Part shown: positions 34,282-50,129 of the stretch, piece by piece | How the letters are laid out: every line of letters begins with the position of its first letter | Numbering within the stretch: the stretch's first letter is position 1 | Source: a virus | Lineage: Duplodnaviria; Caudoviricetes | Strand: one strand, 5' to 3' | IMG/VR virus record: IMGVR_UViG_3300029288_000086 | Span: 79,091-143,090 of that record | Length of the DNA: 64,000 nt | Program-made: the position numbers and the translations under genes | Notes under the pieces: generated by a model | Told to the model about the DNA's origin: nothing | The model's database searches: none | Seen by the model: the letters and a program-made list of their open reading frames with translations, nothing else

Positions 34282-34456
34282 ATTATCCGTCCTTTGTTTT
34301 TTCTTTTATTATAATAATTAAACAATAAAAAGTCAAATTAAAGAGTATAAAGTAATGCAAAATTTTGTATAAAATTCTCAAAATTGAATATAAAAAATCC
34401 TATTCTTAAGAAAATAGAAATTTTAAGAATAGGATGATTTTTATAATCTTGAAATA

Positions 34457-34753: not shown

Positions 34754-34760
34754 GATTTTT

Positions 34761-34955
34761 TTATCCTCTTAAATTTTCAATATAACTTTTAGCTAAACTT
34801 TCCGCTATTGTATAGGATGGCAAGCCATCAGTTACATGAGTTAAAACAGTTTCACCAGTGGAAAGTTTACCAAATATTTTGAATCCCCAAATTGATCTCC
34901 CGTTAACTTTCTGGTATGTAATCTCAATGTTATGTCCCATTTTTTTATCCTCCAA
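34761..34955 (-). CDS. Hypothetical protein
   Basis: GGAGG RBS; promoter TTGACA-16-TATAAT at 35006-34979. Confidence 0.55.
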   Translation of the reverse strand: MEDKKMGHNIEITYQKVNGRSIWGFKIFGKLSTGETVLTHVTDGLPSYTIAESLAKSYIENLRG

Positions 34956-35444
34956 AAATTAGTTAATCAGATAATCTCATTATAACCATTATATTTAAAT
35001 TGTCAAGGGTTTTTAAATATTCGCTTTAAATTGGTATTTATACTCATTTTACCCTGTTTTTATCGCTTCTACATTATATGCAAAATTCTCACTATAAAAA
35101 TAATCTTTTTAACCTAAAATATGCCATTTTTAGCAATTTTAAGCATTATAGATATAAAGTATCATAATCATTGTACAAAACGATTACAGCGATTCCCACG
35201 AACCGATTTAAGATTGTTCTAATTTTCGTTAAGGTAATGTTCTATTTTTTGAATATAAAAATGGTTATTTTAGAAAATAATCTTAATAAAAGTTAAATAT
35301 AATTTTGGTATTAATAAGATTGAATTTTTAGTAAAATTTTAAGGTTGTTCTATAACATTTTTTAAGGTAAAATTCTACTATGTTCTATAATTTTGTGATA
35401 TAATGATTTATAAGTTAAATTCTATTTAAAAAAGGATAAAGAGG

Positions 35445-35765
35445 ATGACCGACCAAATAAAAAAACATACATTGTACCTTGGTTTGAATGATAAGGATAC
35501 AGGAACTCAAAAAATCGGAACTATTGAAAGTTACAAAATTACTCAGAATATTTTAACAGAATTTTGTGATGGTGGTACAATATTTGAAGCACAAGGTTTT
35601 TATAAACACCAGAACGGAACTATAACACTAGAAAAAACCTTGAGAATTGAATTACTATTCATTGATGATCAAACCGTTAAAAAAATATGCGATATGCTGA
35701 AAACAGTTTTTAATCAGGAATCCATCGCTATACAGTCAGAGGTAATCAATTCGGAACTTTACTAA
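35445..35765 (+). CDS. Putative SAM lyase / DUF3574-like PII-fold protein
   Basis: GGTIFEAQGFY...LEKTLRIE...LKTVFNQESI pattern; first gene of the rightward early region. Confidence 0.5.
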   Translation: MTDQIKKHTLYLGLNDKDTGTQKIGTIESYKITQNILTEFCDGGTIFEAQGFYKHQNGTITLEKTLRIELLFIDDQTVKKICDMLKTVFNQESIAIQSEVINSELY

Positions 35766-35864
35766 AAGATTGTAGAATTATCAGATTATGTTATATTTTA
35801 ATAACAGTATAGCATAATCAAATAAGATTACAATTCGGTAATCTGTTAGAACAGTGAGGTTAAA

Positions 35865-36059
35865 ATGTGTACACTTAAACAAGCTAAAGAATTGTCAAAA
35901 AGTTTTGGTAACAGAACAAAATATCCGACTCCTGGTCATGAACGGCTTGTCAAAGTAGAACCGGACGGATCGCGGGTATGGTTGCAAAATCATGCCGGTA
36001 AACTTCGATTAAACATTCAACAACTGGCAGGAGTATTTACATCATTTTATCATGCTTAA
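35865..36059 (+). CDS. Hypothetical protein
   Basis: GAGGT RBS. Confidence 0.55.
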   Translation: MCTLKQAKELSKSFGNRTKYPTPGHERLVKVEPDGSRVWLQNHAGKLRLNIQQLAGVFTSFYHA

Positions 36060-36875
36060 CAGATTGTAATTTTATCACGCTAGACAATTTTAACAGAATT
36101 GTCTAGCCACATAAGGTTATAATCCTGTAACCGGTATAACAGTGAGGTTAAAAATGACAGATCAAGAGTATTTAGAACAACAGTGCAATAATGTAATGGT
36201 GGATCGACCAGAAAACATTAAAATGAAATTAATCTCCGAAACTGGCGAAACAAAATGGATTGACATAACAAGAAAACAAGTTAACGCTATGTTGGATGCA
36301 TTAATCGAAACTCTATAAAAAAGGATAAAACAAAATGCGTAAAATCATTAACAAAAAATGGATGATGGAGACCAGACAAGTTAAAAAATTCAATTTAAAA
36401 GTAGCACGAAAAAATAAAGAAAAAAGGATCGAATTTTTGACTAAAATTGAACTAAACTAATTTTATTTTGCCTCTTGTAATCTTGTTAACAGATGGTACA
36501 ATAAGATTACAAGCGCGGAAGTAAAATTAAAAAACTATATTCAAAAAGAATGGAGTAAAAAAATGTATACAGTAATTGCAGAAAAAAAGAACATTAAATA
36601 CAAAAAATTTTTTTTATTCAGAAAAAACGCAGAAAAAACATTCCGATTTTTTTACGATGATACAAGCATGAATGTAACCCTATATCATTGGTTTAAAATT
36701 GAATTACAATCAATTATTTGTTAATTCCAGCTCAAACCGTGCTATACTTGACATATAACACGGCCACAAGTGCAATTAACAAAAATAGAACACGCATTCT
36801 AATAAAACTCTTATTTCATGGGAATTAGAACAAAATACCTATGACATTTGACTTAAAAACTTATTACATTAACGC

Positions 36876-36904
36876 TTGACTCTCAACTTTAAAAATGATA
36901 TAAT
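36876..36904 (+). promoter_or_regulatory. Early sigmaA-type promoter
   Basis: TTGACT-17-TATAAT with TG; similar promoters at 37617, 41914, 43448, 45593, 49854, 51077, 57169 and 58952. Confidence 0.7.
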
Positions 36905-36932
36905 TATTTAACAATAAAAAAGAGGTCAAAAC

Positions 36933-37169
36933 ATGAACGCAAAATTTAACCAAGGTCAAAAAGTTTGTGACATAACCGGCAAAAGTTACACCATTAAAGA
37001 AGTTAGAACCGACCCGAACCCTGGCGGAACATTCTATTATATGTTTGTCAAGTTTGGCGCGTTCCCACTGGCAGAACGTCATTTATGGCCGTTATCAGAA
37101 CAAAAAAGACTTATTGCAGAACAAAAAGAACGTAGTAAAAACACTCCCAAGGTCAAATTATATCTATAA
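36933..37169 (+). CDS. Hypothetical protein (SH3-like?)
   Basis: GAGGT RBS; KFNQGQKV start. Confidence 0.6.
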   Translation: MNAKFNQGQKVCDITGKSYTIKEVRTDPNPGGTFYYMFVKFGAFPLAERHLWPLSEQKRLIAEQKERSKNTPKVKLYL

Positions 37170-37344
37170 TGGATAATATCATGAATAACAAACCTATAAC
37201 AGACAAAATAATTCAGTTGTGGCTTAACGGTTGCAAAATTGACCGGATCGCTGAACTGTTAGATTGTACAATAGAATTAGTTAATCAAACCGTTGAACGT
37301 GAGATATATCATAACAACAACGACAAAAAGAATGAGGTTAAAAA

Positions 37345-37602
37345 ATGAAATTATTATACTGCCCGAATTGTGCCGATGTTTTCAATCTTAATTTTAAAGA
37401 CAAAAAATGTTCTTGTGGTCAAACAAGTGGACATTATTTATCTGATGGATTGCACGCCGTTTATGTTGGTGGTATTCCTCTTGGATTTAACAATCGTGTT
37501 TTTATGGATGCACTATCAACACAACCAATTAACGGCGCTGGGATGGACTTTCCGGCCTTTGTTATTTCTAAAACATGCGAAACATTCAAAAGATTAATAT
37601 AA
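37345..37602 (+). CDS. Cys-rich hypothetical protein
   Basis: CPNC...CSCG; RBS. Confidence 0.6.
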   Translation: MKLLYCPNCADVFNLNFKDKKCSCGQTSGHYLSDGLHAVYVGGIPLGFNNRVFMDALSTQPINGAGMDFPAFVISKTCETFKRLI

Positions 37603-37686
37603 CAGAAAATTAGTACTTGACAAGTCTTAACAAAACGGTTACAATGCTTAACAGATAACACAATATAGATAACTGGAGGCTACAAA

Positions 37687-37884
37687 ATGGATAAAAGAGA
37701 ATTAATTCATTGTGCTTTACAATATTTATGTAATTTAAAATCATCCAAAATCAAATACACATTAACTAATAATTATGATAATGTTATTGTCACAATAAAT
37801 CCCAACAATATTTTATATTATGTTTATTTTTTTGATACCGGAATTGTAAGAGTATTTAACAAAACTACCGAAGAAGAATTATAG
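37687..37884 (+). CDS. Hypothetical protein
   Basis: GGAGG RBS; upstream promoter. Confidence 0.55.
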   Translation: MDKRELIHCALQYLCNLKSSKIKYTLTNNYDNVIVTINPNNILYYVYFFDTGIVRVFNKTTEEEL

Positions 37885-38009
37885 AACATATATCCCAATA
37901 AAATACTCATTTCATTTAAACTTAATTTAAGGTTTTGTTCTATGTTTGTTCTATTGTAATTATGCTATAAAGTAGTATAATTATTATAGATTAACAAATG
38001 GAGATAAAA

Positions 38010-38195
38010 ATGAACAAAAAATTAATCGAAGCTGTAAAATGGATAGCTTACAATGACAACAACAGCGATTTAAACGTTGAATCAATCGAAAACAATATAA
38101 CAGTCGCTATGGTTGCCGATTTATTTAAAAAATCCGAGCATCAAATCGCTGAATTAGTTTTAAAATATCGTATTGAGGATCAACAAAATGGATGA
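38010..38195 (+). CDS. Hypothetical protein
   Basis: GGAG RBS before ATG 38010. Confidence 0.6.
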   Translation: MNKKLIEAVKWIAYNDNNSDLNVESIENNITVAMVADLFKKSEHQIAELVLKYRIEDQQNG

Positions 38196-38388
38196 TACCG
38201 TTTATTATTGTACTAAATGCGAAAGAAAACTGGACAGTAAAAAAATTGTCTGGCTAGAATTGAACAACGAAAACGGACAGTATTATTATCACTTGAAAGA
38301 TAATCATATTCCCGAAAATGAATCTCAAGGTTTATTCCCCTTTGGCAGAGATTGTGCCTATAATATCGGGAATATCTGGAAGAGATAG
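38188..38388 (+). CDS. Zinc-binding hypothetical protein
   Basis: CTKC...SQGLFPFGRDCA. Confidence 0.6.
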   Translation: MDDTVYYCTKCERKLDSKKIVWLELNNENGQYYYHLKDNHIPENESQGLFPFGRDCAYNIGNIWKR

Positions 38389-38744
38389 AACATATTTCCA
38401 ATGAAATCTATCTTTCATGGTGAATAGAACAAAAATTCTAAAACAGGAGTGCTAAAATGCTCGAATACAAATCAACCAATCATGCAAAAATAATTATCTC
38501 TAATCATAATCAAGTATTGCGCAGAATGAAAAAAAATAAAAAATTTCATCATAATCATATTAATAAACTTGACGGATTCCTTTTTATTTTATCTCATAAC
38601 ATAGAAAAATTACTTTATGAAAAATGATTAATTTAAGGTTATGTTCTATAAACTCTTAACTTATGTTCTATCATTAATAATCATATCGTGGTATACTTAA
38701 CTTAATCAAGAAATCAAGCAAACATTCAAACAGGAGAAAATAAA

Positions 38745-39158
38745 ATGACTGACCCAACATGCAAAGATAGAATCAATCAAGAACTAAAAGACCGAATTTC
38801 AGATCTCAAAAAACTTTGGTCATTATATCAAATCGGTGACGAAAACGGCGATCCTGAACTCGGTCAATTCAACGAATATGGCCTATGTTTTGATTATATC
38901 GCCCCTGGCACGTTCAATAATCAACGCAATGGATATTTCAGGTATCAATTATCCTATGGTGGGCCGTCCGATGAATTCCGGTTCTTTGTTGACAATGCCG
39001 GAAAACTCTATAAAATCGAATACTGGTTTTTAGACTGGTATGACGGTTCATGCAAAAAATTGACCGGCTCAAATTATGAACTCATGGAAGAGATTTATAA
39101 CTTCTTTGATGAAATTGGAAGCACTGAAGCCGAATTTAACAAGGCTATGGAAGATTAA
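38745..39158 (+). CDS. Phage hypothetical protein
   Basis: GYFRYQLSYGGPSDEFRF; AGGAG RBS. Confidence 0.7.
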   Translation: MTDPTCKDRINQELKDRISDLKKLWSLYQIGDENGDPELGQFNEYGLCFDYIAPGTFNNQRNGYFRYQLSYGGPSDEFRFFVDNAGKLYKIEYWFLDWYDGSCKKLTGSNYELMEEIYNFFDEIGSTEAEFNKAMED

Positions 39159-39247
39159 TTTTATCCTGACCATATAACCGGATTACATAACACTTAACAT
39201 AATCCGGTTATAAAATGAGTGTAAAATTAAACAATGGAGGCTTAACA

Positions 39248-39436
39248 ATGGCATACAAACGATTAACACAAGATGAGTACACGGTTCAGGGCAATTATGG
39301 TCAAGGCTGGGAAGACGTAACAGCCGAACCGACACGCAAAGAATGCAAAGAACGGTTAAAAGAATACCGCGAGAATGAACCAATGTACCCTCATAGAATG
39401 ATTGTCCGCCGTGTTAGAATCTTACAGGTGACTTAA
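39248..39436 (+). CDS. Hypothetical protein
   Basis: VQGNYGQGWEDV; GGAGG RBS. Confidence 0.6.
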   Translation: MAYKRLTQDEYTVQGNYGQGWEDVTAEPTRKECKERLKEYRENEPMYPHRMIVRRVRILQVT

Positions 39437-39529
39437 CATGCCGGTTATAATCTTCGGGTTCGCTCTCTTTATTATATTGTTGGCGTTTTGCGGATTGTAT
39501 AAACTCATAACAGGAAAGGATTTGAAATA

Positions 39530-39742
39530 ATGAAAAACACTATTGAAACTTTAATACACATTGACAAATTAGATGATGGTAGGTATCATTTAACTATGTC
39601 GTGGATGAGTGTACAGGGTTTTGCAATTATGCAACGCAAGGCAGATTTTAAAACCATTGCTGAGAGTACCGGATGGATCGAATCAACACAAAAAGAATTT
39701 GAAAATATCCTGGCTGAAGAACAGGAACAAGAACAGGAATAA
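39530..39742 (+). CDS. Hypothetical protein
   Basis: AAAGGA RBS. Confidence 0.55.
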   Translation: MKNTIETLIHIDKLDDGRYHLTMSWMSVQGFAIMQRKADFKTIAESTGWIESTQKEFENILAEEQEQEQE

Positions 39743-40015
39743 ACCGCTTAACAGCCGGTCAAATATCAATCAGACAATGAAAGGATAAACTAAAATGTGG
39801 ATAACAGCATACAATCATAAAAATGGTGGACGGTTCGTGTCTCAACAAAATTATAACCTCTTATCTTTTCTTTTCTATGCTTTAAGATATGGTTATAGGT
39901 CTTTTCATTTTAGCATAAATTTTGTGAAAGCAGATCAATTTAAAAGATAGAACATCCTTCCCATGAAATAACCTTTTCATTGTGGCAAGTTTACTTAACA
40001 GAAAGGATTAAACAG

Positions 40016-40237
40016 ATGACAAATTATTGGAGCTGTAATTTTGAAAAAGCAAAAACCGACCATTATATTATTTCTGAAAAACGAAACGATTTTTTAGGAA
40101 TTGTAGAAAGCTATACAATTTGTGGCAAAACAATATTTGTCAGTCTAGATGTTCTTTCTCAACACTCAACAAATCGTAAACATTGTAAAAAATGCGAATT
40201 ATTATTAAAGAATAAAAACTTAATAGGATCAATCTAA
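40016..40237 (+). CDS. Hypothetical protein (H/C zinc-binding pattern)
   Basis: AAAGGA RBS after a palindrome. Confidence 0.55.
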   Translation: MTNYWSCNFEKAKTDHYIISEKRNDFLGIVESYTICGKTIFVSLDVLSQHSTNRKHCKKCELLLKNKNLIGSI

Positions 40238-40422
40238 TGGACGAATTATTAATAATCCGTTTTCAGGATCACATGGCAGACCTAAAACTTCCTAATTGTC
40301 TTATTAACTACTGGATGGGTAGACTCTACGAAGGGACGCTAACAGAATTACGACTAAAATTTTTATTATATTCTGATACTGATGATTTTCAAAGGGACTA
40401 TGATTTTTCAATCAATTATTAA
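40237..40422 (+). CDS. Hypothetical protein
   Basis: Coupled to the previous stop. Confidence 0.5.
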   Translation: MDELLIIRFQDHMADLKLPNCLINYWMGRLYEGTLTELRLKFLLYSDTDDFQRDYDFSINY

Positions 40423-40736
40423 AACCTTAAAAGACTCAAATCTTTTAAGGTTTTGTTCTATTTTGTTCTATTGTATTTTTGAAATTATCGGTTATAATTG
40501 AATTAAGAAATTAACCAACAAAGGAGACCAAATTATGTGGCAGACAAAATACTTCAAAACATACGAACAGGCACAAAGTTGGATAACAAAAAATTATCAT
40601 AAATACCAGATGGAACTAATTTTCATCAATCAAAAAACTGAAAAATCCGCTGGCTATTTTGAAGGTTGCGAAGGTGGTCATAATGGATGGCATAATGCAG
40701 AAATTCAATCCTAACAGGAATAGGAGAATAAATACC

Positions 40737-41096
40737 ATGAATAAAAAATATACCGAACGCAAAGCTCGATTATTCCCAAACGGCAAACCCCGTTACATCC
40801 GATGCTATGATAACGGCGGGGAAACCGCAGACCGCTATACTGTATGTTTTACCGGTCATTATACCCAAAATACAGCCGGTATGCATTGGAATCTAGCCAT
40901 GAACGCTAGTCCGTTTCATCCGCAAGGTATCGGTATGCATTGCGATAGTAACATGCCAATTGACCGACCTACATACGGGCATCTTGGCAAGAAAATAAGT
41001 TTCGATCAACTACCTGAAGATTGTCAAAAACTAGTATTACAAAATTATGTTTATCTCTGGTCTATAACAGACCATCCATTATATTCAGAGTCTTAA
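40737..41096 (+). CDS. Phage hypothetical protein
   Basis: RCYDNGGETADRYTV...HPQGIG...HLGKKI; AGGAG RBS. Confidence 0.7.
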   Translation: MNKKYTERKARLFPNGKPRYIRCYDNGGETADRYTVCFTGHYTQNTAGMHWNLAMNASPFHPQGIGMHCDSNMPIDRPTYGHLGKKISFDQLPEDCQKLVLQNYVYLWSITDHPLYSES

Positions 41097-41134
41097 CAGC
41101 ATAACCAATTCAGATACCGAAAGGATAAAATAAC

Positions 41135-41740
41135 ATGACAGCAAAACAGAAATTTGACATTAAAATAAAATGGGAAGATGACGATAACCCTGATTTATCA
41201 TGGTTGGGAACTTACAAGGGGGATAAGCCCAAAACCGCATACGTTGATCGAAAAAATAATTTATTGGTAGTGCCCGACCGCAGATTAATGAAAACTTTTG
41301 GTACGTATGAACAAGCCGATAATTTTAATCAAGAACTGGAAGACTTAAATATTCGTACTGATTTCTGGCAGGAAGAAAACGAGAACGGGAAATTTGATGT
41401 AAAATATGTATTCTATAAAGAATTACCTTTCTCATGCCGGTTTGGACGTAACGATTACCAATATATCGAATCTTGGAACTATCCGAAACCTACTGATGAA
41501 GAACTGGAGTACATCATACAAGATACACGGTTATTAGAATCTTGTGGTGATAGCTGGTATATGCGCGGATGTATTGTAACAGCGTCATTAAATGGCGTTG
41601 AACTAGGATCAGACTCTATATTGGGGCTAAACTCCATGATGACCGAAGAAGAAAGCCAACAAGTTATTGATGAACTGACAGAAAATGCCATAACAGAAGC
41701 CAGAAATCAGTTGAAACTGTTACAATATGCAAAGGTGTAA
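41135..41740 (+). CDS. Hypothetical protein
   Basis: 201 aa; RBS. Confidence 0.7.
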   Translation: MTAKQKFDIKIKWEDDDNPDLSWLGTYKGDKPKTAYVDRKNNLLVVPDRRLMKTFGTYEQADNFNQELEDLNIRTDFWQEENENGKFDVKYVFYKELPFSCRFGRNDYQYIESWNYPKPTDEELEYIIQDTRLLESCGDSWYMRGCIVTASLNGVELGSDSILGLNSMMTEEESQQVIDELTENAITEARNQLKLLQYAKV

Positions 41741-41964
41741 CTATGAGACTTAACAGCCGTATCCGTGGCTTTTTACTACAACTAATCAAACCATCTGGCA
41801 ATATAAAAGAAATACAAAAAGCTGAACGCGCCTTGAAAATCATTGAACGTGGCAGGATTTTTGAATCAGAATTAATCTGGCTGTCAATGATAGGCTATAA
41901 ACCTCAATAACCCTTGACAATACTCTTAACAGTAGGCTATAATTAGATTACGAAAGGATAACAG

Positions 41965-42219
41965 ATGACATTATATCAATGGCTACAAAGCCAAAACATA
42001 AAACCTCAATCACTGACCGGCAAAAAGATTAACCTATTAAAATATATCGAAGGTTCAAAACGTCCTCAACAAACCGGTTATAACTATGAAAATATGGGTA
42101 AAGTCAAAGCTATTGATAAATGGAAAATCACTTTTGAAAATGGTGGATCGTGGTATGCCGGTGAACAAATAGGAACTGATTACACCGCCAACTCGTGGAA
42201 AATTGAAGTATTAGGATAA
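41965..42219 (+). CDS. Hypothetical protein
   Basis: Promoter TTGACA-18-TATAAT at 41914-41943; RBS. Confidence 0.6.
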   Translation: MTLYQWLQSQNIKPQSLTGKKINLLKYIEGSKRPQQTGYNYENMGKVKAIDKWKITFENGGSWYAGEQIGTDYTANSWKIEVLG

Positions 42220-42237
42220 TAAGAGGAGATTGATAAA

Positions 42238-42432
42238 ATGAATAAAATTATAGCCAGAAAGTTAAGAAGTAGTAATACAAATAAGCTAGCAAATAATGTG
42301 TTTATTTCCAAAGAAGACGGAACACTGGAGCGATTCGAATGGAATAAATACTACCATGTTTATAATTCTTCAGATAATTATCATCAATTAACATCTGATG
42401 AATTAAAAAATATTGATTGGGATTGGGAATAG
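42238..42432 (+). CDS. Hypothetical protein
   Basis: GAGGAG RBS. Confidence 0.55.
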   Translation: MNKIIARKLRSSNTNKLANNVFISKEDGTLERFEWNKYYHVYNSSDNYHQLTSDELKNIDWDWE

Positions 42433-42444
42433 AACAATTGTTCC
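42431..42444. promoter_or_regulatory. LexA (SOS) box, Gram-positive type
   Basis: AGAAC-AATT-GTTCC abutting a palindrome copy. Confidence 0.55.
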
Positions 42445-42502
42445 ATGAAATAATCCTTTTATGGGGTAATTTTCAATCGGATTTAATAACAGGAGGATAA
42501 AA

Positions 42503-42724
42503 ATGGATACTGAATATTTTACTTTCAAAGATGGCATTATAACAGTCAAGATTAGTTCTAATGTATCAGATAGAACGTTAACAGAAATAAATAACATAAT
42601 TGATACTTTCAACAAAATCTTGCCTGGAAATTGTCAAGTTGTATTACAAGGTAATAATCTATATTTTTCTGATCAAGTTGATTATTATCTTATTGATGAA
42701 AATTTTGATACAACTATTTACTAG
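42503..42724 (+). CDS. Hypothetical protein
   Basis: GGAGG RBS. Confidence 0.55.
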   Translation: MDTEYFTFKDGIITVKISSNVSDRTLTEINNIIDTFNKILPGNCQVVLQGNNLYFSDQVDYYLIDENFDTTIY

Positions 42725-42735
42725 GAGGTATAATC

Positions 42736-42978
42736 ATGTGGCATACTAATAACAGCATACCTGAACTCGGTCAAAAAATAAAATACAAAGATCAAAATGG
42801 TATGACCCATGTAGGGATATTCCATGCAGATACCGATTACTGGCTAGTGCATGACCTTGTGGGCGGTATTATTACCCCTTGGCATAATGTAATTGAATGG
42901 CAGGGCTTTGAACCGGCTTTAACGGATGTCTGGTACTTTAATTTTCTGTTGGCTGAAATTGAATCCGAACTAGCATAA
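42736..42978 (+). CDS. Hypothetical protein
   Basis: GGAGGT RBS. Confidence 0.6.
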   Translation: MWHTNNSIPELGQKIKYKDQNGMTHVGIFHADTDYWLVHDLVGGIITPWHNVIEWQGFEPALTDVWYFNFLLAEIESELA

Positions 42979-42979
42979 T

Positions 42980-42993
42980 AGAACATCTGTTCC
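42980..42993. promoter_or_regulatory. LexA (SOS) box, Gram-positive type
   Basis: AGAAC-ATCT-GTTCC abutting a palindrome copy. Confidence 0.55.
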
Positions 42994-43052
42994 ATGAAAG
43001 AGTGGTTTCATGGTGTATGACAAAAACTATCTAATTTGAAAGGATTAAAATT

Positions 43053-43268
43053 ATGTATGATAATTATGAGAGATATACTAGTAAGAATTTATTTAGTGAT
43101 AAAACAATTGGATTTTTAGCCTTTGTGACTGACTGGAATCAATTCGCTATTGGAATAAAAATCTATAAACATAAAAAATATTCCAGTTATAAAACTTCTT
43201 TTCGTTTATCTTTTGCTTTTTGGTATATTGAATTTAGTACTAGAAATCTTGAAAATTTACCGAGATAA
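43053..43268 (+). CDS. Hypothetical protein
   Basis: AAAGGA RBS. Confidence 0.55.
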   Translation: MYDNYERYTSKNLFSDKTIGFLAFVTDWNQFAIGIKIYKHKKYSSYKTSFRLSFAFWYIEFSTRNLENLPR

Positions 43269-43639
43269 CCAAACACCTCACCACATACCCCATTTAACCC
43301 TATCAGGAACCTCTAGGAACGATTTATACAACAAATTGGACAAATATACACTATAACCATTTAAATCGTTTGTAGGGCTTCCTGTGGGATAAAATTTGTG
43401 GTGATATAAGGTTGAACATTAGAAAACTTAAATTAATTGAAAAGTACTTGACTTTTGCGAAAACCGACTATATAATATTATTATGAAATGAAATAAGGCG
43501 CTCGAATAAAATATCGGATATAAAGAATCACTAAAATAAAAACGCCCAATAAATATAAATCGAGATTTTTAGTAGGAGCGTGACCTACACCGAAGCGCCG
43601 AAATTTCAAATTAAAAATAATTTGTGAAAGGTTTTTATA

Positions 43640-43831
43640 ATGTTTGAGATAATCGAAAAACTAAAGTCTGGCGCTTGTAAAGGATCAACAGTTAGTGGTA
43701 CTGATAACGTAATCAAAAAACTGTCTTCTTTAAAGCATGAGGCAATTGTCAAGCAAAATGGGAAAATCGTTGGCAGGTGCTGGAAAAAAGATAACGGACA
43801 TTGGAATTATTATTTAGATCAAACGGTGTAA
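43640..43831 (+). CDS. Hypothetical protein
   Basis: RBS; downstream of the promoter at 43448. Confidence 0.55.
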   Translation: MFEIIEKLKSGACKGSTVSGTDNVIKKLSSLKHEAIVKQNGKIVGRCWKKDNGHWNYYLDQTV

Positions 43832-43868
43832 CACAAAACAAAAAATAGTTTACGAAAGGAAAATAAAA

Positions 43869-44138
43869 ATGAGTACAACCTTTAAAAGAATAACTGGAAA
43901 ATTTGAAGATTACAGTAACCGCCCTACCAATTTTGAAAGTGGAAAATTTCCAACACCAGAATATAAAGATAACGAATTATCTTTGACTTCTTTTGCTGGT
44001 GGCAAGGAAAGAGGCCGGTGCTTGCAAGTAACGTTGCATGATAGTATTGGCTATGCCCAATTTACTAAAGATCAAGCAACAGAACTTCGTGACGCTTTAA
44101 ACTCATGGCTGAATGGCGAAGAATTGACAGACGTATAA
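43869..44138 (+). CDS. Hypothetical protein
   Basis: LTSFAGGKERGRCLQVT; RBS. Confidence 0.65.
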   Translation: MSTTFKRITGKFEDYSNRPTNFESGKFPTPEYKDNELSLTSFAGGKERGRCLQVTLHDSIGYAQFTKDQATELRDALNSWLNGEELTDV

Positions 44139-44191
44139 ATTCCCATGAAATGTCAATTTCATTAGCCTTAACAGAAAAGGAGAATTAGATC

Positions 44192-44503
44192 ATGAGATGG
44201 AATAAAATTGATTGGGACGCTATAAGCAATTTTAACGATGAACATGATGAAAATGAGGATATTGATTGGGGTAAAATCGTTCCCGCATTATTCCTAAGTA
44301 GTGGACTTCCCACTAACGATAAAGCAATTTATCTTCTCCGTGAAAAAATGGATAGTGGCGATTATCATTATTGGATTGGTATGTATGAACCTGATTTTTC
44401 TATGCCATATTTTTACGATCCAGAAATGGTAAACGATTCTGAAATTACTGATAACTACTTTTATCCTGAAGCATGGGTTGAAATAACAAACGAGGATATA
44501 TAA
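44192..44503 (+). CDS. Acidic hypothetical protein
   Basis: AAGGAG RBS. Confidence 0.65.
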   Translation: MRWNKIDWDAISNFNDEHDENEDIDWGKIVPALFLSSGLPTNDKAIYLLREKMDSGDYHYWIGMYEPDFSMPYFYDPEMVNDSEITDNYFYPEAWVEITNEDI

Positions 44504-44670
44504 ATGGAAGAACTAATTAAAAAACTTGAATATGCTAAAAAAGCAGTATTATCTACACTTGGGAATGCTGATTGTTCCGTTGATTTTCACGGACTTACTT
44601 ATTGGGCTTCAGAAGTTGAACGACTACGCACTGAAATTAAAAAGATGCTATAACAGAACCGGAGGCTTAC

Positions 44671-44925
44671 ATGACTAGGGTTCAAAAACAGCGTATACAT
44701 GCAACACGAAGGGCTAAACAACGTTACGGGCTAGAACTAGATAAGTCTGACATAGATAAAATCATAAATCTTATTCAGAACCGTGGAGCCGTTGAGACAA
44801 AGAAATTAACCAACGCTAGAACCTTACACGTTATACAGTACAAAGAGCAAGAACTGAAAGTTATTTATGACAAAAAGAGACACAATGTTTGTACTTTCAT
44901 GCCTATTGAATGGGCTGGAGCTTAA
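44671..44925 (+). CDS. Basic hypothetical protein (RelE/DUF4258-like pattern)
   Basis: HATRRAKQRYG...VIYD...VCTF. Confidence 0.5.
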   Translation: MTRVQKQRIHATRRAKQRYGLELDKSDIDKIINLIQNRGAVETKKLTNARTLHVIQYKEQELKVIYDKKRHNVCTFMPIEWAGA

Positions 44926-44945
44926 TAACAGGAATGGAGGATTGA

Positions 44946-45131
44946 ATGACCTATCAAATTTTTTATATCAGTTTTGGCCGTACTTGCCCTTTGTCAGAGC
45001 TAGAACCTGAAAAATTTGGCATTGAATTTAAATCACCAGAAGAAGCGTCGGAATGTTTTCACGCATGGGTTGACGCTGGGTTCGTGAATTACCCAAAAGC
45101 GACTTTCATAATTTTGCCAGTAATCAAATAA
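44946..45131 (+). CDS. Hypothetical protein
   Basis: GGAGG RBS. Confidence 0.5.
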   Translation: MTYQIFYISFGRTCPLSELEPEKFGIEFKSPEEASECFHAWVDAGFVNYPKATFIILPVIK

Positions 45132-45316
45132 CAGGAAGGATAAACCGATGTCTGAAGAAAAAAAACAAGAATATATTCGATGGTATTATCAAAAAGTCCT
45201 TGATGATTTGGGACTAAAAGAATCAGAATTAACACCCTACCAAAAACAAGCACTATACGAAAATCTCGAATTATTTATGATGGAGTTCATTAAATAAAAA
45301 TAGAAAGGAGAATATA

Positions 45317-45556
45317 ATGTTTGAACACGGATCAAATAGTTGGAATGGAATTAAGGTTCGTAAGAACGGTGTAGAAGGCGTGGTAGTAAAGGATTGGAAT
45401 GCCTATCGCCGTATTCTAACCGTTGATATGGAAAACGGAATTGAGGAAACAATTACAATGAACAATATGGGTAGAGACCCTGAATCAGTACACGATTGGG
45501 AATGGCTGGATGACAGAGGATCAAGTAAAGAACATCCAGAATGGTATAGATTTTAA
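45317..45556 (+). CDS. Hypothetical protein
   Basis: AAGGAG RBS. Confidence 0.6.
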   Translation: MFEHGSNSWNGIKVRKNGVEGVVVKDWNAYRRILTVDMENGIEETITMNNMGRDPESVHDWEWLDDRGSSKEHPEWYRF

Positions 45557-45645
45557 TCTCCATGAAACTTTTCTTTCATGTAAAATTGGTGCTTGACATT
45601 GCTTAACAGAAGTGCTACTATGAATACCGAGAGGAGACAAAACTT

Positions 45646-45870
45646 ATGAATAACAAAACCGAACAAGAACAATTTCTCAAAGATTTAACCCAAAACATTT
45701 TGGACGATATTCTTGGTCACTTATCAGATGGTGATATTCCCGAAAATTGGGATGGTATTGAACTCCGGTGGTTGTTGGCTGAAAAGTTTACTGACTCTGC
45801 TAGTCTTTGCGACAAGGCAACAAAACGCCGAAAAGATTATAAAAATTGGATGTTGGTCAATAACCTATAA
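45646..45870 (+). CDS. Hypothetical protein
   Basis: Own promoter at 45593; flanked by two palindromes. Confidence 0.65.
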   Translation: MNNKTEQEQFLKDLTQNILDDILGHLSDGDIPENWDGIELRWLLAEKFTDSASLCDKATKRRKDYKNWMLVNNL

Positions 45871-45936
45871 CAGCCAATAAAAGAACGATTTCATGGTACT
45901 TAACAGACAATTATATACAGATAAAAGGAGAAAATA

Positions 45937-46560
45937 ATGCACACACACGCAGAAATTTACTTAGAAAGCAAAGAAAATTGGCAAGAACAGGTTGAAGAAA
46001 TTTTACAACCTTACGATGAAAACCTAGAAGTTCAAGAAGAAAAAGATGATGACGGTAATCTTTATTGGTGTAATCCTAACGGAATTTTTGATTGGTATGA
46101 AATTGGTGGTAGATGGACTGGATCACACGGTAATTATAATCCAGAAGAAGATATTAGAAATTATGAGAAGTGTAGACTATGTGGTGGCACAGGATTACGC
46201 AATGATGAAATTGGGTTAAAACACAGACAAGAAAATCCTGATTACAAATGTAACGAATGCTATCACTATAACAGAGATACCGGAGTGGATGAACCAGGAT
46301 TCTTTGGTGCCGGAATGGCTTTGAAATGGCCTACGGACTGGTTCAATCATGAAAGTAACATTATTCCGGTTGAAGAAATTGACGAAAAATTAGATTGTGG
46401 CACTATCTTTTTCAATGGTGATTATTGGGAAAATGAAGAATGGGATTCTGACAATAAAGAATTCAAACCAAACAAAGATTTTAACGGAAACGTGAAAGAA
46501 TTTTTGACTAAAAACGGCATTACTACCGGCTTTTTGGTAACAGTTGATTATCACTGGTAG
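45937..46560 (+). CDS. Hypothetical protein with DnaJ-type zinc-finger insert
   Basis: NPNGIFDWYEIGGRW; CRLCGGTG...CNEC; VDYH C-terminus; flanked by palindromes. Confidence 0.7.
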   Translation: MHTHAEIYLESKENWQEQVEEILQPYDENLEVQEEKDDDGNLYWCNPNGIFDWYEIGGRWTGSHGNYNPEEDIRNYEKCRLCGGTGLRNDEIGLKHRQENPDYKCNECYHYNRDTGVDEPGFFGAGMALKWPTDWFNHESNIIPVEEIDEKLDCGTIFFNGDYWENEEWDSDNKEFKPNKDFNGNVKEFLTKNGITTGFLVTVDYHW

Positions 46561-46629
46561 TACCACAATAAAACATCTATTTCATGGTGCTTAACAGATA
46601 ATCATATTTGGACACGAAAGGATAATATA

Positions 46630-47295
46630 ATGAATAAAACAGAAGAAATTTTAAAAAGAGATTCTATTCAGGAAACTGAAAACTTATTAGGCAAAGATTA
46701 CCATGATTTCAATGGCTCTGAAAATGCCTTGATGATGCTTAGTTTTATGGTAGACAATCAAGTAAAAGAAAATCATCTTAAATCAATTGGTGATACATGG
46801 TTTAATATGCCTTGGAGTGAATTCAAGAAAAAATTAGAAGACTATGGTTTTGTTCTTGGTTTGCAATATGATATTAAACATGACGATCAAATAGATGAAG
46901 TCGTCATTTATTACCATAAAGAAAAAGGATTGGTAATTTTCGCTGATAGTTATTTTAACAAAAAAGACGTAAATGGTGGTGAATTATACGGTGAAATTCG
47001 TGCGAATAGTGAACAAGACAAACAAGATATCTGGCTGAACTTGTCTAGTGGTGGCATGAGTCATTATGATAATATGGTTTTTGAAACTAGCCATGATGTA
47101 AGAGAAGGCTTATTCTTTAAATTATCTAAATTAGAAACGTCCGGTAAATTTTTATCTCAATGGTTAAACAAAGACCGATTCTTGTATTTTGTTGATTACG
47201 TTGAAAATAAAGTTGAAGGTTATGATTATAAAAAACTTACTCGTGAAAAGATATTGAAATGCCCAAAAAAATTACAAGAAATTGTAGGGTTATAA
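46630..47295 (+). CDS. Hypothetical protein
   Basis: 221 aa; flanked by palindromes. Confidence 0.7.
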   Translation: MNKTEEILKRDSIQETENLLGKDYHDFNGSENALMMLSFMVDNQVKENHLKSIGDTWFNMPWSEFKKKLEDYGFVLGLQYDIKHDDQIDEVVIYYHKEKGLVIFADSYFNKKDVNGGELYGEIRANSEQDKQDIWLNLSSGGMSHYDNMVFETSHDVREGLFFKLSKLETSGKFLSQWLNKDRFLYFVDYVENKVEGYDYKKLTREKILKCPKKLQEIVGL

Positions 47296-47346
47296 CTACC
47301 CCATGAAATTTCCATTTCATTAGACTTAACAGAAAGGATATAACAG

Positions 47347-47718
47347 ATGAGCGACTTCCCAAAAATAAAAATTCAAAACTCAGATAACCATTATGATGAT
47401 CAATTTGAGAAAAGACCTTGCCAAAAAGTTAAACTAATAAGTTATAAAAGAAAAGATTGTGACAAATGGCATCGTCTAAATGGATTGATCTCTAACGTTT
47501 TGCATGAACGGTTTACTGTAATTTCTGCAACCGAGGGTGTTTATTGGAGCGAAGAACTGCACAGATATACCTCAAAACATCCAGAGAATGATAAAATGGT
47601 TCTCTATGCGGAATCGGCTAATAATAAATTCACGCAGGAAGACAAAATATATTTACAAGCAATACGCGATATTGTATCACAATCAATGGAGCCATTTTTC
47701 AATGCGCTATACAAATAA
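47347..47718 (+). CDS. Hypothetical protein
   Basis: RBS; flanked by palindromes. Confidence 0.65.
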   Translation: MSDFPKIKIQNSDNHYDDQFEKRPCQKVKLISYKRKDCDKWHRLNGLISNVLHERFTVISATEGVYWSEELHRYTSKHPENDKMVLYAESANNKFTQEDKIYLQAIRDIVSQSMEPFFNALYK

Positions 47719-47769
47719 CACCATGAAACAAGAATTTTATTCGGTTACTTAACAGAATAGGAGATATAA

Positions 47770-48030
47770 ATGAAAACTTACGAACCAGATTATAAAACGT
47801 TGAACCATCCAACCATAACAAAACTTGCTTTCCAAAAGTGTTGTGATTTAGGTTTAACAGAATTTGAAAAATGGGTTTTATTCGACTTTGATTATAGTGA
47901 ATGGTTCGATCAATTAGAATTCATTATGAGTGCGACAAAGGAACAACTCCAAGAACGTGTAATTTGGGAAGAAATTACTGACGAAAAAGGCAATCCTGTA
48001 ACAGCCGAATCGTGGGAATTGACCGCATGA
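47770..48030 (+). CDS. Hypothetical protein
   Basis: RBS; stop codon inside a palindrome arm. Confidence 0.6.
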   Translation: MKTYEPDYKTLNHPTITKLAFQKCCDLGLTEFEKWVLFDFDYSEWFDQLEFIMSATKEQLQERVIWEEITDEKGNPVTAESWELTA

Positions 48031-48074
48031 AAACTAAGATTTCATGGACATATATAACAGAAAGGACAATTTGA

Positions 48075-48929
48075 ATGAGAATTAGAACGGATGTTGATGC
48101 AAACTACAAAGCAATATTCTTTGAAGGCAAAACCATCAGACAAAGAATTACTAATTCTATGCCGGTATCCGCCCCTGAATATGCCGAAATAGAAGATGTT
48201 GCTATCAATAGTAAGTGTTTTGGTAATTGCCCTTACTGTTATACGTCTGCACTTCATACTGGCACTAATTTTGAAAACATTGTTGAAAAGGCACGACTGA
48301 TATGGGGATCAAGAATATTAAACAACCGTCCTTTCCAAATTGCTATTGGTGGTGCTGGTGAATCTACATTACATCCAGATTGGATTAATTTTGTTAAAAG
48401 TGTTTATGAGTTAGGAATTGTACCAAACTATACAACCAACGGAATGCACTTAACAGAAAATATTTTAATGGCTACTGAACAATATTGCGGTGGCGTTGCA
48501 GTTAGTTATCATCCCCATATTGAAAAAGTTTTTCATCAATCAATTAACACTTTATCTGAAATAAAAACAGTATTGAATGTTCACATTATTATTGGTGACG
48601 AAAAATCTTTAACTGATTTAAAAATTCTTTTTGAAACATATAAAGAAAAAGTGAAATATTTTGTTTTGTTGCCATATAAAGCAGTTGGAAGGGCTACAAA
48701 TATTGAAACTAGAAACACATGGAATAATTTGTTTAAGTGGATATCAACCTTAAATAAATCTGAATATGAAAAATTCGCATACGGAGCTAATTTTTATGAC
48801 TATCTAAAAGAAAACCAACTAAAATTACCTATTGACATTTACGAACCAGAGATGTATTCTGGATATAGAATTTTTGATGATTCTTTTATGAATCTTCGTC
48901 ACAGTTCGTATAATCTAACTTTCAAATAA
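48075..48929 (+). CDS. Radical SAM protein
   Basis: CFGNCPYC (CxxxCxxC), GGAGESTLHP and TTNG motifs. Confidence 0.9.
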   Translation: MRIRTDVDANYKAIFFEGKTIRQRITNSMPVSAPEYAEIEDVAINSKCFGNCPYCYTSALHTGTNFENIVEKARLIWGSRILNNRPFQIAIGGAGESTLHPDWINFVKSVYELGIVPNYTTNGMHLTENILMATEQYCGGVAVSYHPHIEKVFHQSINTLSEIKTVLNVHIIIGDEKSLTDLKILFETYKEKVKYFVLLPYKAVGRATNIETRNTWNNLFKWISTLNKSEYEKFAYGANFYDYLKENQLKLPIDIYEPEMYSGYRIFDDSFMNLRHSSYNLTFK

Positions 48930-48938
48930 GGAGAAAAA

Positions 48939-49457
48939 ATGAAAACAATTTTTGTAATGAATATTGAAAACACAATTGATTTGATTACTAACTCATCATC
49001 GGAACTTTTTGTGCTAAAAGGTGGTACAAAAGAAGCAATCACACAAATGCTCGATACTATTGATCCTGCATGGCGCAAAGAATATGCAGAACCAAAAAAT
49101 ATTGTAGAATTAGATGCAAATGAACTTGACACATATTTTAGTTACGCTTGCTCACCTCACATGAGGCCTGCAAAAAAATCAATGTATCCTGTTTTGAACG
49201 GATTTACTTTTGACGAACTTTATGAAAAGGACACTGACCGTGGTAAAAATTGGGATGGTAGTGTAGACTATAAACTCAAAAACAATGAGGATGATAGTAA
49301 ATGGGGTAATTTTGTGACTGAAACAAACAAAAATGCCATGATTGAAAAACTTAATCCCAAAAAGGATATGTGGTTTTTGTTCTCTTTTGATGAAAATCCA
49401 GATTGGGATTTGCAAGAGAAATTAATGGATATTGCTGAACGCTATCATTTAGGATAG
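48939..49457 (+). CDS. Hypothetical protein with TNSSSE motif (radical SAM partner)
   Basis: DLITNSSSELFV; same palindrome-bounded unit as the radical SAM gene. Confidence 0.65.
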   Translation: MKTIFVMNIENTIDLITNSSSELFVLKGGTKEAITQMLDTIDPAWRKEYAEPKNIVELDANELDTYFSYACSPHMRPAKKSMYPVLNGFTFDELYEKDTDRGKNWDGSVDYKLKNNEDDSKWGNFVTETNKNAMIEKLNPKKDMWFLFSFDENPDWDLQEKLMDIAERYHLG

Positions 49458-49505
49458 TCATACCCCATGAAACAGCAATTTCATCGGCTTTTTTGAAAGG
49501 ATAAA

Positions 49506-49850
49506 ATGATTAACAAACTTAGACTAATATTGGATTATGAAACATCTAGAGATTGCGACTTAGAAAAATACGCCCCTTCTAATCGCTATGCGTATTGGGT
49601 GTGCGTAGCTGGATATAATACAGAAGAAGAGTTTTTGAAAGAAGAATCTCCTGATGATGCCTTCTTTTCTAGTGGCAAAGAGGCAAATTCAAAATTTGGT
49701 ATTGATCCATCCGTTGAACTAAATTTTGGTGCAATAATTTACGAAAATGGTGAATCATATTTTTCTAATAGGAAGAATGCTGTGAAAATGTTTAAATTTG
49801 TTGAATCAAAATTAAAAGAATTAGGATATGAAATTATAACAAAAAATTGA
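49506..49850 (+). CDS. Hypothetical protein
   Basis: RBS. Confidence 0.6.
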   Translation: MINKLRLILDYETSRDCDLEKYAPSNRYAYWVCVAGYNTEEEFLKEESPDDAFFSSGKEANSKFGIDPSVELNFGAIIYENGESYFSNRKNAVKMFKFVESKLKELGYEIITKN

Positions 49851-49905
49851 CTATTGACTTTTTATAATTGTCGTGCAATAATATATAACAGAAAGGATAA
49901 TAAAA

Positions 49906-50103: not shown

Positions 50104-50129
50104 TTTCATTAAAAAAGAAAGGACTAAAT

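Follow-up and report, generated by a model that had tools for sequence, protein, structure and literature searches.

The hexamer TAACAG was found as a dense, strand-polarised word in the early gene block of this phage, and we interpret it as a signal that controls the early transcription unit in an orientation-dependent manner. In the window, by which the whole 64-kb stretch of DNA analysed is meant, 91 matches were present against 30.8 ± 5.7 in shuffles. Between positions 35800 and 48460 the word was detected 45 times on the + strand and, as CTGTTA, 4 times on the − strand. The expectation for this 12.66-kb stretch was 3.7 (order 1), 6.5 (order 2), 13.9 (order 3) or 25.8 (maximal order) copies in the Markov-corrected comparison proposed in a preliminary description of this DNA, and TAACAG was the top hexamer at every order tested. 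Because a one-way excess of about 10-fold over chance in the early block stands next to genes that avoid the word, some factor presumably reads TAACAG for early gene control.

The phage, its early block and its relatives

An open reading frame of 848 residues (27564..30110, − strand) heads a leftward block with the structural and packaging genes and encodes a YonO-type single-chain RNA polymerase, matching yonO of SPBc2 (E = 5e-17) and of BUCT082 (38% identity). The phage was therefore placed among the SPbeta/c-st-like phages; the Pfam families YonG, YonD, YonB, YomX, YomW, YomV and YonV are present in syntenic relatives. By analogy with SPbeta, the late genes are presumably transcribed by the YonO-type polymerase, and YonO of SPbeta initiates from one late promoter (PMC5467207). 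Two tyrosine-recombinase-like genes were found per phage, and these phages are thus probably temperate. A divergent promoter region marks the start of the early block. The gene that comes first on the rightward side (35445..35765, +) is DUF3574/SAM-lyase-like, an anti-restriction type, and the leftward early genes (33875..35006, −), which have a consensus promoter at 35006-34979, include an ArdC-N-like gene of anti-restriction type at 34457-34753 and a single sense-oriented TAACAG at 34687. With its divergent promoters and anti-restriction-type genes the block does look like first-expressed DNA. Entry of this DNA into the cell ahead of the rest, as considered in the preliminary description, found no support; no terminal repeats were present in the contigs.

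The dense TAACAG block (35554..48456, +) comprised about 40 small early genes and carried 46 copies on the + strand and 4 on the − strand. The density was roughly even across 35.8-48.5 kb at about 3.6 per kb, continued at about 1 per kb to the contig end, and was 0.1 per kb in the remaining 65 kb of + strand genes of the 143-kb record. The tail of the early block (48461..63647, +), which reaches the contig end, held 15 copies on the + strand and 2 on the − strand, about four times the expectation, and 13 + strand copies were located in the first 32 kb. The preliminary description had counted 45 + strand copies in 35.8-48.5 kb and named eight example positions, all of which were reproduced here. 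The strong polarity that it reported also held, although its figure of about 2 for CTGTTA had to be raised to 4, and its approximate counts of 13 further copies up to 63.7 kb and 11 in the first 32 kb became 15 and 13. The oriented signal is real and confined to the early block.

Five related uncultured phages displayed the same one-way cluster, beginning where rightward transcription starts, and their early-region sequences were largely or wholly unrelated. The early region of the relative G002 gave no blastn match to this phage, yet contained TAACAG in a ratio of 31 to 4; about 17% of the early block could be aligned between this phage and G001, the terminases of the two being 96% identical. 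TAACAG was the top hexamer in G001, G002, G003 and G004, and four further short metagenome contigs gave + and − strand counts of 6/0, 17/1, 5/1 and 12/2. With four phages pooled, 52.7 kb of early DNA contained 165 + strand and 10 − strand copies, compared to 16 and 35 in the 189 kb of other + strand genes, and the + strand density was 36 times as high in the early DNA. In three phages the other genes on the same strand were depleted of the word (3 against 10.1, 4 against 13.5 and 4 against 9.4 expected; z = −2.2 to −2.7), about 2.5-fold in the rest of that gene block. The late genes were neutral in sense orientation (43 pooled copies, about 44 expected), and the leftward early genes, only 8.9 kb in extent, held 7 sense-oriented copies against 2.6 expected (P = 0.017). 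In the stretches that could be aligned, 15 of 22 TAACAG sites were kept, compared to 48% of other hexamers.

No comparable one-way hexamer was found beside yonO in the cultured or published YonO phages BUCT082, MT835481 and MT835469, and the cluster is therefore specific to this clade and no general SPbeta trait. A megablast search revealed no close relatives among cultured phages, and the helicase used as a probe for relatives yielded nothing. For the host, a search of 185,579 species genomes with the terminase yielded as its sole match a 3-kb contig of a mis-binned MAG, and the NCBI matches were metagenome assemblies. No report of TAACAG or UAACAG in a relevant sense was found in the literature.

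Start codons, promoters and coding sequence

The sites of the dense stretch were distributed over intergenic DNA (20 sites), positions where the TAA of the word serves as stop codon for the gene before it (6 sites) and coding sequence (19-20 sites). Every context named in the preliminary description, that is, intergenic DNA, positions before ribosome-binding sites, promoter spacers, a hairpin loop and open reading frames, was recovered, and no single one of them accounts for the word. The flanked form CTTAACAGA was present in 14 genome copies and in none on the opposite strand, and the general flank preference was limited to [C/T][A/T] on the 5′ side and A-A on the 3′ side. A weak second element was evident 21 nt downstream, where a T occupied position +21 in 133 of 203 sites in four phages (65%), giving the bipartite shape TAACAG-N13-(R)AT; in 27 cases this T belonged to the ATG of the next gene. 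Two TAAC were spaced by 21 bp 29 times against 6.9 ± 3.9 expected. A general 10.5-bp phasing of site pairs was unconvincing, only the 21-nt spacing being conspicuous.

Nine sites in the window were located just 5′ of a ribosome-binding site and exactly 20 nt before an ATG. The arrangement TAACAG-AAAGGA-N8-ATG at 47327..47349 (+) exemplifies this class, the other + strand members of which are at 39996, 44651, 44926, 47750, 48055, 49886, 52029 and 60859. Across four phages, 46 of the 203 sites were 15-23 nt before a start codon and directly abutted the Shine-Dalgarno sequence (SD), 27 of them at exactly 20 nt. TAACAG was present within 30 nt of the start in 11 of 40 early genes and in 0 of 125 other + strand genes, and SD-like cores were similarly frequent upstream of both.

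Within coding sequence, the word exceeded the expectation from shuffling synonymous codons in all four phages (18 against 5.2, 31 against 7.9, 14 against 3.9 and 16 against 3.2; z = 6 to 8.5). The tripeptides [LIV]-T-[EDGAV] were written xTA-ACA-Gxx in 14 of 26 instances in the early block and in 1 of 31 elsewhere. Selection acts on the nucleotide word even at synonymous sites. The preliminary description had allowed that the excess might disappear after correction for codon use, ribosome-binding sites and stop codons; it persisted, with 18-19 coding copies against 5 ± 2 after synonymous-codon shuffling. A generic ribosome-binding-site or stop-codon effect was rejected on the synonymous-shuffle excess, the tripeptide spelling and the contrast between early and other genes.

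TAACAG was also detected next to start sites and in promoter spacers, the latter at 36487, 41927 and 45604. The consensus sigma-A-type promoter TTGACA-18-TATAAT at 41914..41964 (+) has the word in mid-spacer (41927) and is followed by AGATTAC and then by the SD, with a second TAACAG (41959) separating SD and ATG; the promoter TTGACA-17-TACTAT at 45593..45621 (+) has it in the spacer (45604). At 37600..37654 (+) a promoter TTGACA-17-TACAAT lies between two words, one 11 nt upstream of the −35 element (37600) and one 3 nt after the −10 element (37649); G001 has the same layout, and in G002 and G003, too, the word follows the −10 element. Overall, 10 of 30 strong early promoters carried TAACAG near −42, −11, +10 or +21 relative to the first base of the −10 hexamer, against 0 of 11 elsewhere in the genome. 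A role as a fixed-distance element of sigma-A −10 sequences was rejected, since of the 103 intergenic sites about 16 are so placed, and of the coding sites none.

The hairpin or palindrome at 36080..36108 (+), located 10 nt upstream of a TATAAT, has an 11-bp stem and displays the word (36091) in its loop TTAACAG. The stem sequence was different in each of three phages and the pairing was preserved, 9 of 18 pairs being compensatory. An inverted repeat read directly from the sequences, CTTGTAATCTT / AAGATTACAAG (36474..36513, +), encloses the word at 36487 and a TACAAT in an 18-nt loop, and by eye its copy in G001 showed compensating changes in the arms. Six palindromes in 44.1-48.1 kb had TAACAG 7-10 nt downstream of each. 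The word followed 6 of the 16 palindromes of the dense block, 1 of the 29 of the tail and 0 of the 61 located elsewhere. TAACAG as an arm-type site of inter-gene palindromes was discarded, only 7 of 106 palindromes in the + strand blocks having the word downstream and all but one of these lying in 44-48 kb. The predicted RNA accessibility of the word was modestly above that of composition-matched hexamers (pooled P = 3e-5); the signal was clear in G001 and G002 only, and absent in this phage and G003. An Rfam scan of 32-64 kb revealed a tRNA only.

What may read the word

Tentatively, and with rather less than even confidence, we suggest that TAACAG is read as single-stranded RNA on the early mRNA, by analogy with RegB and RegA of phage T4. 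The word would be a cis-acting, sense-strand mark on the early messages of this phage clade. It would be recognised by a protein peculiar to the clade and synthesised early or in the middle period, which would bind or cut beside the ribosome-binding site as well as elsewhere on the message. The early mRNAs would be switched off or destabilised at the early-to-middle transition, as by T4 RegB (at GGAG) and RegA. We infer reading on RNA as opposed to DNA, the shut-off effect and the identity of the reader alike. Single-stranded reading is favoured by the display of the word in the hairpin loop, conserved in three phages, and by the modestly raised accessibility. The one-way enrichment, the synonymous-site selection, the conservation without sequence homology, the link to translation starts, the avoidance in the other + strand genes and the RegB precedent also count for the RNA model. 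Several observations count against it. In the late genes, which are neutral, the word should have been selected against if an RNA-level reader were active at that stage, and the RNA model needs an extra assumption for them, such as coupling to host-polymerase transcripts. The word would be absent from the RNA begun at several strong promoters because it is placed in the spacer or upstream of the −35 element. The 21-nt TAAC spacing, which equals two helical turns of DNA, the missing accessibility signal in this phage and in G003, and a Pfam scan of 87 called early proteins that revealed no nuclease and no RNA-binding domain likewise weigh against RNA reading. The conserved gene for a very basic 41-residue peptide near the start of the early block (36335..36460, +) is a candidate reader only; the peptide had no Pfam or PDB relatives, and a ribbon-helix-helix protein was ruled out, its predicted model being one long helix. 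A rather improbable variant is a co-transcriptional hexamer code, read either on RNA still being made or on the non-template strand in complexes of the host polymerase by a tiny phage factor, possibly this basic helix. If true, it would let the phage treat early transcripts of the host polymerase differently from YonO transcripts.

Possible as well, though on balance unlikely, is an asymmetric double-stranded DNA operator resembling the stoperators of mycobacteriophages, at which a phage repressor or shut-off protein would prevent initiation at promoters and, depending on orientation, halt the host RNA polymerase as it elongates through the early block. It would do so in the lysogen or when the early genes are shut off. 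Stoperators of the L5 type are defined by sites in promoters and intergenic DNA in one orientation (PMC9283540), and here too promoters as well as transcribed intergenic DNA contain sites, all of which point the same way with respect to transcription. The recurring positions in strong early promoters, the 21-bp spacing with the T at +21, the favoured sense orientation in the leftward early genes and the probably temperate nature of these phages all agree with such an operator. So does the combination of neutral late genes, transcribed by YonO in SPbeta, with depletion in other same-strand genes, which fits a block specific for the host polymerase. However, a core of 6 bp, compared to 13 bp, offers little specificity to a DNA-binding protein, half of the sites are inside coding sequence, and the sites are restricted to one block instead of extending across all lytic operons, the other + strand genes being depleted. 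The exact 20-nt register to the start codon and the loop display are not predicted, the Pfam scan revealed no HTH or other DNA-binding domain in the 87 early proteins, and the phased promoter positions come from about 14 sites, among which some are homologous between phages.

Among the options raised in the preliminary description, the best fit is a site to which a phage protein binds on DNA or RNA. Its other proposals, a Chi-like site for AddAB/RecBCD or a KOPS/SRS-like translocase cue in the first-exposed DNA, appear very improbable. The strict polarity, the high density in coding and non-coding DNA alike and the anti-restriction-type genes that open the block would suit a signal to a host machine, as would the lack of TAACAG in cultured relatives on other hosts. 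Not expected for such a signal are the +21 element, the fixed start-codon placement, the recurring promoter positions, the depletion in neighbouring same-strand genes and the weak tendency of the orientation to flip in the leftward early genes; moreover, no terminal repeats mark a fixed genome end in the contigs. It is also quite improbable that the word is a functionless passenger of mobile promoter and ribosome-binding-site cassettes copied between gene junctions. The early region is highly mosaic, and both the junction TAACAG-AAAGGA-N8-ATG and the form TTGACA-N5-7-TAACAG-N5-6-TATAAT-AGATAAC-SD recur, as do the palindromes with the word downstream. Yet about half of the copies are coding and under synonymous-site selection, the spacer bases of the promoter cassettes vary around an intact TAACAG, palindromes occur independently of the word, and aligned sites are kept above the rate of other hexamers. 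Very improbable, too, is that TAACAG is the upstream part of a promoter, with a second element about 15 nt downstream, that is used by a sigma factor or polymerase of the phage not yet recognised as such. The bipartite shape is in its favour, and the AAC-to-T spacing is close to that of ECF-type promoters. Against it, a search of four phages gave no Sigma70_r2 or r4_2 domain, 27 of the T residues at +21 are part of the next gene's ATG, and 45-68 promoters in 13-30 kb, half of them intragenic, are implausible. An array of YonO promoters was rejected, YonO of SPbeta having only one late promoter (PMC5467207) and the late block of this phage showing no enrichment.

SPbeta-like phages serve as a model both of lysis-lysogeny control and of the unusual single-chain YonO polymerase. 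Synonymous-site selection, retention despite unrelated early genes and avoidance in the neighbouring genes together indicate a strong, undescribed regulatory constraint. The word is also a simple mark by which the early region of related metagenomic phages can be located from sequence.

Comparison with known systems

The GGAG sites cut by RegB are found chiefly where translation of early genes begins and at times within coding sequence, whereas most middle mRNAs and all late ones are spared (PMC3014915). In T4 the late mRNAs escape by their context and not by lacking the target word. TAACAG resembles the targets of the RegB/RegA system in being a short sense-strand word in early-gene initiation regions, with some copies in coding sequence, and in its supposed role of ending the early period; later gene classes would escape, as in T4. 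It differs from GGAG in sequence and adjoins the SD instead of being the SD; about half of its copies are coding and under synonymous-site selection, the late genes here are not depleted, and no RegB/RegA-like Pfam domain was found among the 87 early proteins.

The operator/stoperator sites of cluster A mycobacteriophages, bound by a monomeric two-domain HTH immunity repressor of the L5 gp71 type, share with TAACAG the many asymmetric copies in promoters and short intergenic spaces. They are oriented with transcription, as the overwhelmingly one-way rightward block is here, and have effects that depend both on this orientation and on the host polymerase (PMC9283540). They are, however, 13-mers, compared to a 6-bp core with a weak +21 element, and number about 25-30 copies genome-wide, compared to 45-68 in one block of 13-30 kb, half of them within genes. 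Chi and KOPS/SRS are likewise dense, strand-polarised short words in coding and non-coding DNA. The known Chi and KOPS words are G-rich and host-wide, follow the direction of replication and have no promoter or start-codon register, whereas TAACAG is local to one phage gene block and avoided next door. In phage T7, the EcoP15I sites (CAGCAG) are all in one orientation, a bias without enrichment that is explained by escape from Type III restriction. TAACAG is similarly an asymmetric hexamer in a single orientation, but it is about 10-fold enriched, and in one region only.

Genome setting and polarity of TAACAG

The window forms the final 64 kb of a linear 143-kb virus record with an estimated completeness of 78%. 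Simple calls of open reading frames with a Shine-Dalgarno (SD) sequence revealed a leftward block (about 0.2-30 kb, − strand) that includes the genes for the portal, terminase, virion proteins and polymerase, and about 87 small genes forming a rightward block (+ strand) that runs from 35.4 kb as far as the contig end. An AT-rich divergent region of 3 kb (32.5-35.4 kb) lies between the two blocks. The leftward block encodes an 848-residue homologue (27564-30110, −) of YonO, the RNA polymerase of SPbeta, which consists of a single chain. The homologue matched SPBc2 yonO with E = 5e-17 and showed 38% identity to that of Bacillus phage BUCT082 and 30% to that of Clostridium phage c-st. Since the Pfam families YonG, YonD, YonB, YomX, YomW, YomV and YonV are also present in syntenic relatives, the phage is an uncultured SPbeta/c-st-like phage.

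The first gene of the rightward block is DUF3574/SAM-lyase-like (35445-35765, +), and an ArdC-N-like gene (34457-34753, −) belongs to a short leftward operon with a consensus promoter. Anti-restriction-type genes at the divergent promoter region are consistent with an early, first-expressed block, and the pair beside the divergent early promoters resembles an anti-restriction island at the onset of early expression. A Pfam scan gave any match for only 7 of the 87 rightward proteins. A weakly matching radical-SAM-like protein (48075-48929, +), a C5 cytosine DNA methyltransferase (53500-54408, +) and a GmrSD_N-like protein (55546-56073, +) probably serve defence or counter-defence. A tRNA gene (62643-62715, +; Rfam, 67 bits) is located among the small early genes.

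In the dense block at 35800-48460, TAACAG was found 45 times on the + strand and 4 times on the − strand; the + strand count of the preliminary description was thereby confirmed, whereas its figure of about two complementary copies was too low. The over-representation persisted under Markov correction, with 3.7, 6.5, 13.9 and 25.8 copies expected at orders 1, 2, 3 and 4, respectively, and TAACAG ranking first among hexamers at each order. The word is also, as had been proposed, densest at the start of the early region: its density declines to about 1 per kb between the dense block and the contig end, and the remaining 65 kb of + strand genes in the record have 0.1 per kb. The non-coding 20% or so of the dense block holds 26 copies (20 intergenic, 6 providing the TAA stop of the upstream gene), or about 1 per 100 bp, and 19-20 copies lie within genes, mostly framed xTA-ACA-Gxx.

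A synonymous-codon shuffle of the early genes gave an expectation of 5.2 ± 2.0 coding copies, against 18 observed. In the early block, tripeptides of the form [LIV]-T-[EDGAV] have a fourfold higher frequency, and 14 of 26 are spelled with TAACAG, compared with 1 of 31 in the other + strand genes. The word occurs at most 30 nt upstream of the start codon in 11 of 40 early genes, 4 of 46 genes of the tail (from 48.5 kb onwards) and none of the 125 others, while SD-like cores are similarly frequent in all three sets. The enrichment thus survives control for codon use and RBS or stop-codon context, and a generic origin in any of these was ruled out by the shuffle, tripeptide and start-site comparisons.

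Conservation and sequence context

Relatives were retrieved from IMG/VR by their terminase, and the genomes compared are partly related among themselves. The early regions of G001 (160 kb), G002 (125 kb; terminase 71% and YonO 36% identical), G003 (a 55.8-kb fragment) and G004 (a fragment; YonO 36%) contained TAACAG on the + and − strands in 60/1, 31/4, 29/1 and 16/3 copies, respectively. In each the cluster begins at the onset of rightward transcription and TAACAG is the top hexamer; G005 displayed a weak excess only. Coding enrichment was significant in four of four phages (z = 6.0 to 8.5), and four more metagenome contigs of the same synteny had 6/0, 17/1, 5/1 and 12/2 copies. Nothing comparable adjoins yonO in BUCT082 (Spbetavirus) or in two faecal YonO phages, and the signal is clade-specific. 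The early region of G002 gave no blastn match to that of this phage. Mosaicism with G001 is strong, the terminase (18221-20056) being 96% identical, YonO 65%, and the early block about 17% alignable (4.8 of 28 kb). Within the aligned stretches 15 of 22 TAACAG sites are retained, whereas the figure for other hexamers is 48%, which implies turnover of individual sites at a maintained density. In the metagenome contig L068 three copies stand within 27 nt (6108-6134, +) in the gap just ahead of the leftward early genes. A 3-kb contig labelled 'Candidatus Pacearchaeota archaeon UBA284' (DAKN01000024.1) carries the clade terminase at 64% identity and is probably a binning contaminant.

Across 203 pooled sites TAAC was strict, position 5 favoured A and tolerated G, and position 6 favoured G, then A or C. 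The variants TAACAA, TAACAC and TAACGG are polarised too, at 6-7 times their density elsewhere, and words altered within the first four positions showed no enrichment. The flanks prefer [C/T][A/T] on the 5′ side and A-A on the 3′ side. A T at position +21, found in 133 of the 203 sites against a background of 30%, holds in every phage; at 27 sites it belongs to the ATG with which the following gene starts, exactly at +20, and at other intergenic sites to a tRRATaAC element that looks like a degenerate second TAAC. The spacing between TAAC copies peaks at 21 nt (29 pairs, 6.9 ± 3.9 expected), with a lesser peak at 42.

About half of all sites are in coding sequence. At 46 sites the word abuts the SD sequence 15-23 nt ahead of the start, as TAACAG-AAAGGA-N8-ATG or TAACAGGAGG-N-ATG. 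It is centred in the spacer of near-consensus sigma-A-type promoters at 41914 and 45593, in G001 at 60081 and 63851 and in G003 at 42569, the surrounding bases differing between promoters. Other promoters have a copy on either side, some 14 nt ahead of the −35 and 3-5 nt past the −10 (37617 here, G001 53765, G002 16047; the copy past the −10 only at G003 35967). Strong promoters carry the word in 10 of 30 early cases and in 0 of 11 in the rest of the genomes, this promoter phasing being based on few sites. Only some 16 of the 103 intergenic sites, and none in coding sequence, have a −10-like hexamer at a constant distance; owing to this rarity the word itself was rejected as a promoter element. 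At 36080-36108 the loop of a hairpin with an 11-bp stem reads TTAACAG; the stems of G001 and G003 differ in sequence yet keep their pairing, 9 of 18 pairs being compensatory. Direct reading of the sequences gave a like pattern for a second inverted repeat (36474-36513).

The palindrome (C)CATGAAA-N6-TTTCATG(G), each copy with its own 6-nt centre, is found between genes about 118 times genome-wide (window 36802-62200; positions 1-65000 of the whole record, G000). TAACAG follows 6 of the 16 palindromes within the dense block, 1 of the 29 within the tail and none of the 61 elsewhere, and the palindromes are a separate system. The SPbeta master repressor MrpR adopts the fold of a tyrosine recombinase and binds a repeated element, SPBRE (PMC10516654). 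Given this precedent and two tyrosine-recombinase-like genes in this phage (G000:27215-27703, + and 78282-78824, −), the palindromes may be MrpR-type repressor sites and not crossover sites. All four phages also have an excess of TGTTCT/AGAACA and TAGAAC on both strands of their early regions (38400-43000 here).

Avoidance outside the early block

The other + strand genes are depleted of TAACAG in the sense strand. Observed copies and order-2 Markov expectations were 6 and 14.8 in this phage, 5 and 15.3 in G001, and 5 and 9.6 in G002; within coding sequences 3, 4 and 4 copies compared with 10.1, 13.5 and 9.4 after synonymous shuffling. The effect is modest (z = −2.2 to −2.7, synonymous shuffle) and amounts to about two independent observations, because G001 is closely related to this phage. 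Late genes are neutral in their own sense in the four phages (22 vs 15.4, 10 vs 13.2, 7 vs 8.3 and 4 vs 7.4); if they are transcribed by YonO as in SPbeta, the word would be relevant solely to genes that the host polymerase transcribes. In their short leftward early operons, seven contigs together had 7 sense copies against 2.6 expected (P = 0.017) and 2 antisense against 1.6, a weak result from few sites, suggesting faintly that orientation tracks transcription and not one absolute strand.

Possible readers of the word

The strict polarity, the onset at the start of rightward transcription, the selection at synonymous sites and the avoidance next door point to a directional reader coupled to transcription of the early block. 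One candidate is a very basic, lysine/arginine-rich peptide of 41 residues (36335-36460, +) near the start of the block, the sole early protein common to the four phages whose early start is complete. Its 16 homologues are all metagenomic and from this clade, with none found in cultured phages; no Pfam or PDB relatives were found, and an AlphaFold model predicts a single long helix (pLDDT 84). Every examined contig with the peptide has the word cluster, but G004 lacks the peptide and has the cluster nonetheless, and the carriers are all of one clade, so the association is weak. An HU/IHF-family DNA-binding protein (26424-26705, −), encoded downstream of yonO and in all four related phages, is a further candidate.

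Mechanisms at the RNA and DNA level fit about equally, and three others fit worse: passive hitch-hiking on cassettes and a Chi- or KOPS-like signal are very improbable, and a promoter for an unrecognised sigma factor or polymerase is the least credible. An asymmetric operator that would block initiation and, by orientation, elongation by the host polymerase is on the unlikely side; the placement in and around promoters, the 21-bp spacing, the presumed host-polymerase specificity and a likely temperate lifestyle (two tyrosine-recombinase-like genes per phage) speak for it, against a core of 6 bp, many coding copies and sites confined to one block. Tentatively, TAACAG may instead be read on early mRNA, tagging it for a phage protein that would block or cut at the initiation region. 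The SD-abutting register, the display in hairpin loops and a modest excess of accessibility at the word agree with such reading of mRNA, although some copies precede the start site of the promoter to which they belong, and late genes are neutral. The operator would have its counterpart in the stoperators of cluster A mycobacteriophages, which keep the host polymerase from initiating and, according to their orientation, from elongating (PMC9283540). The proposed role on mRNA resembles that of T4 RegB and RegA, by which the mRNA initiation region is cut or blocked (PMC3014915).
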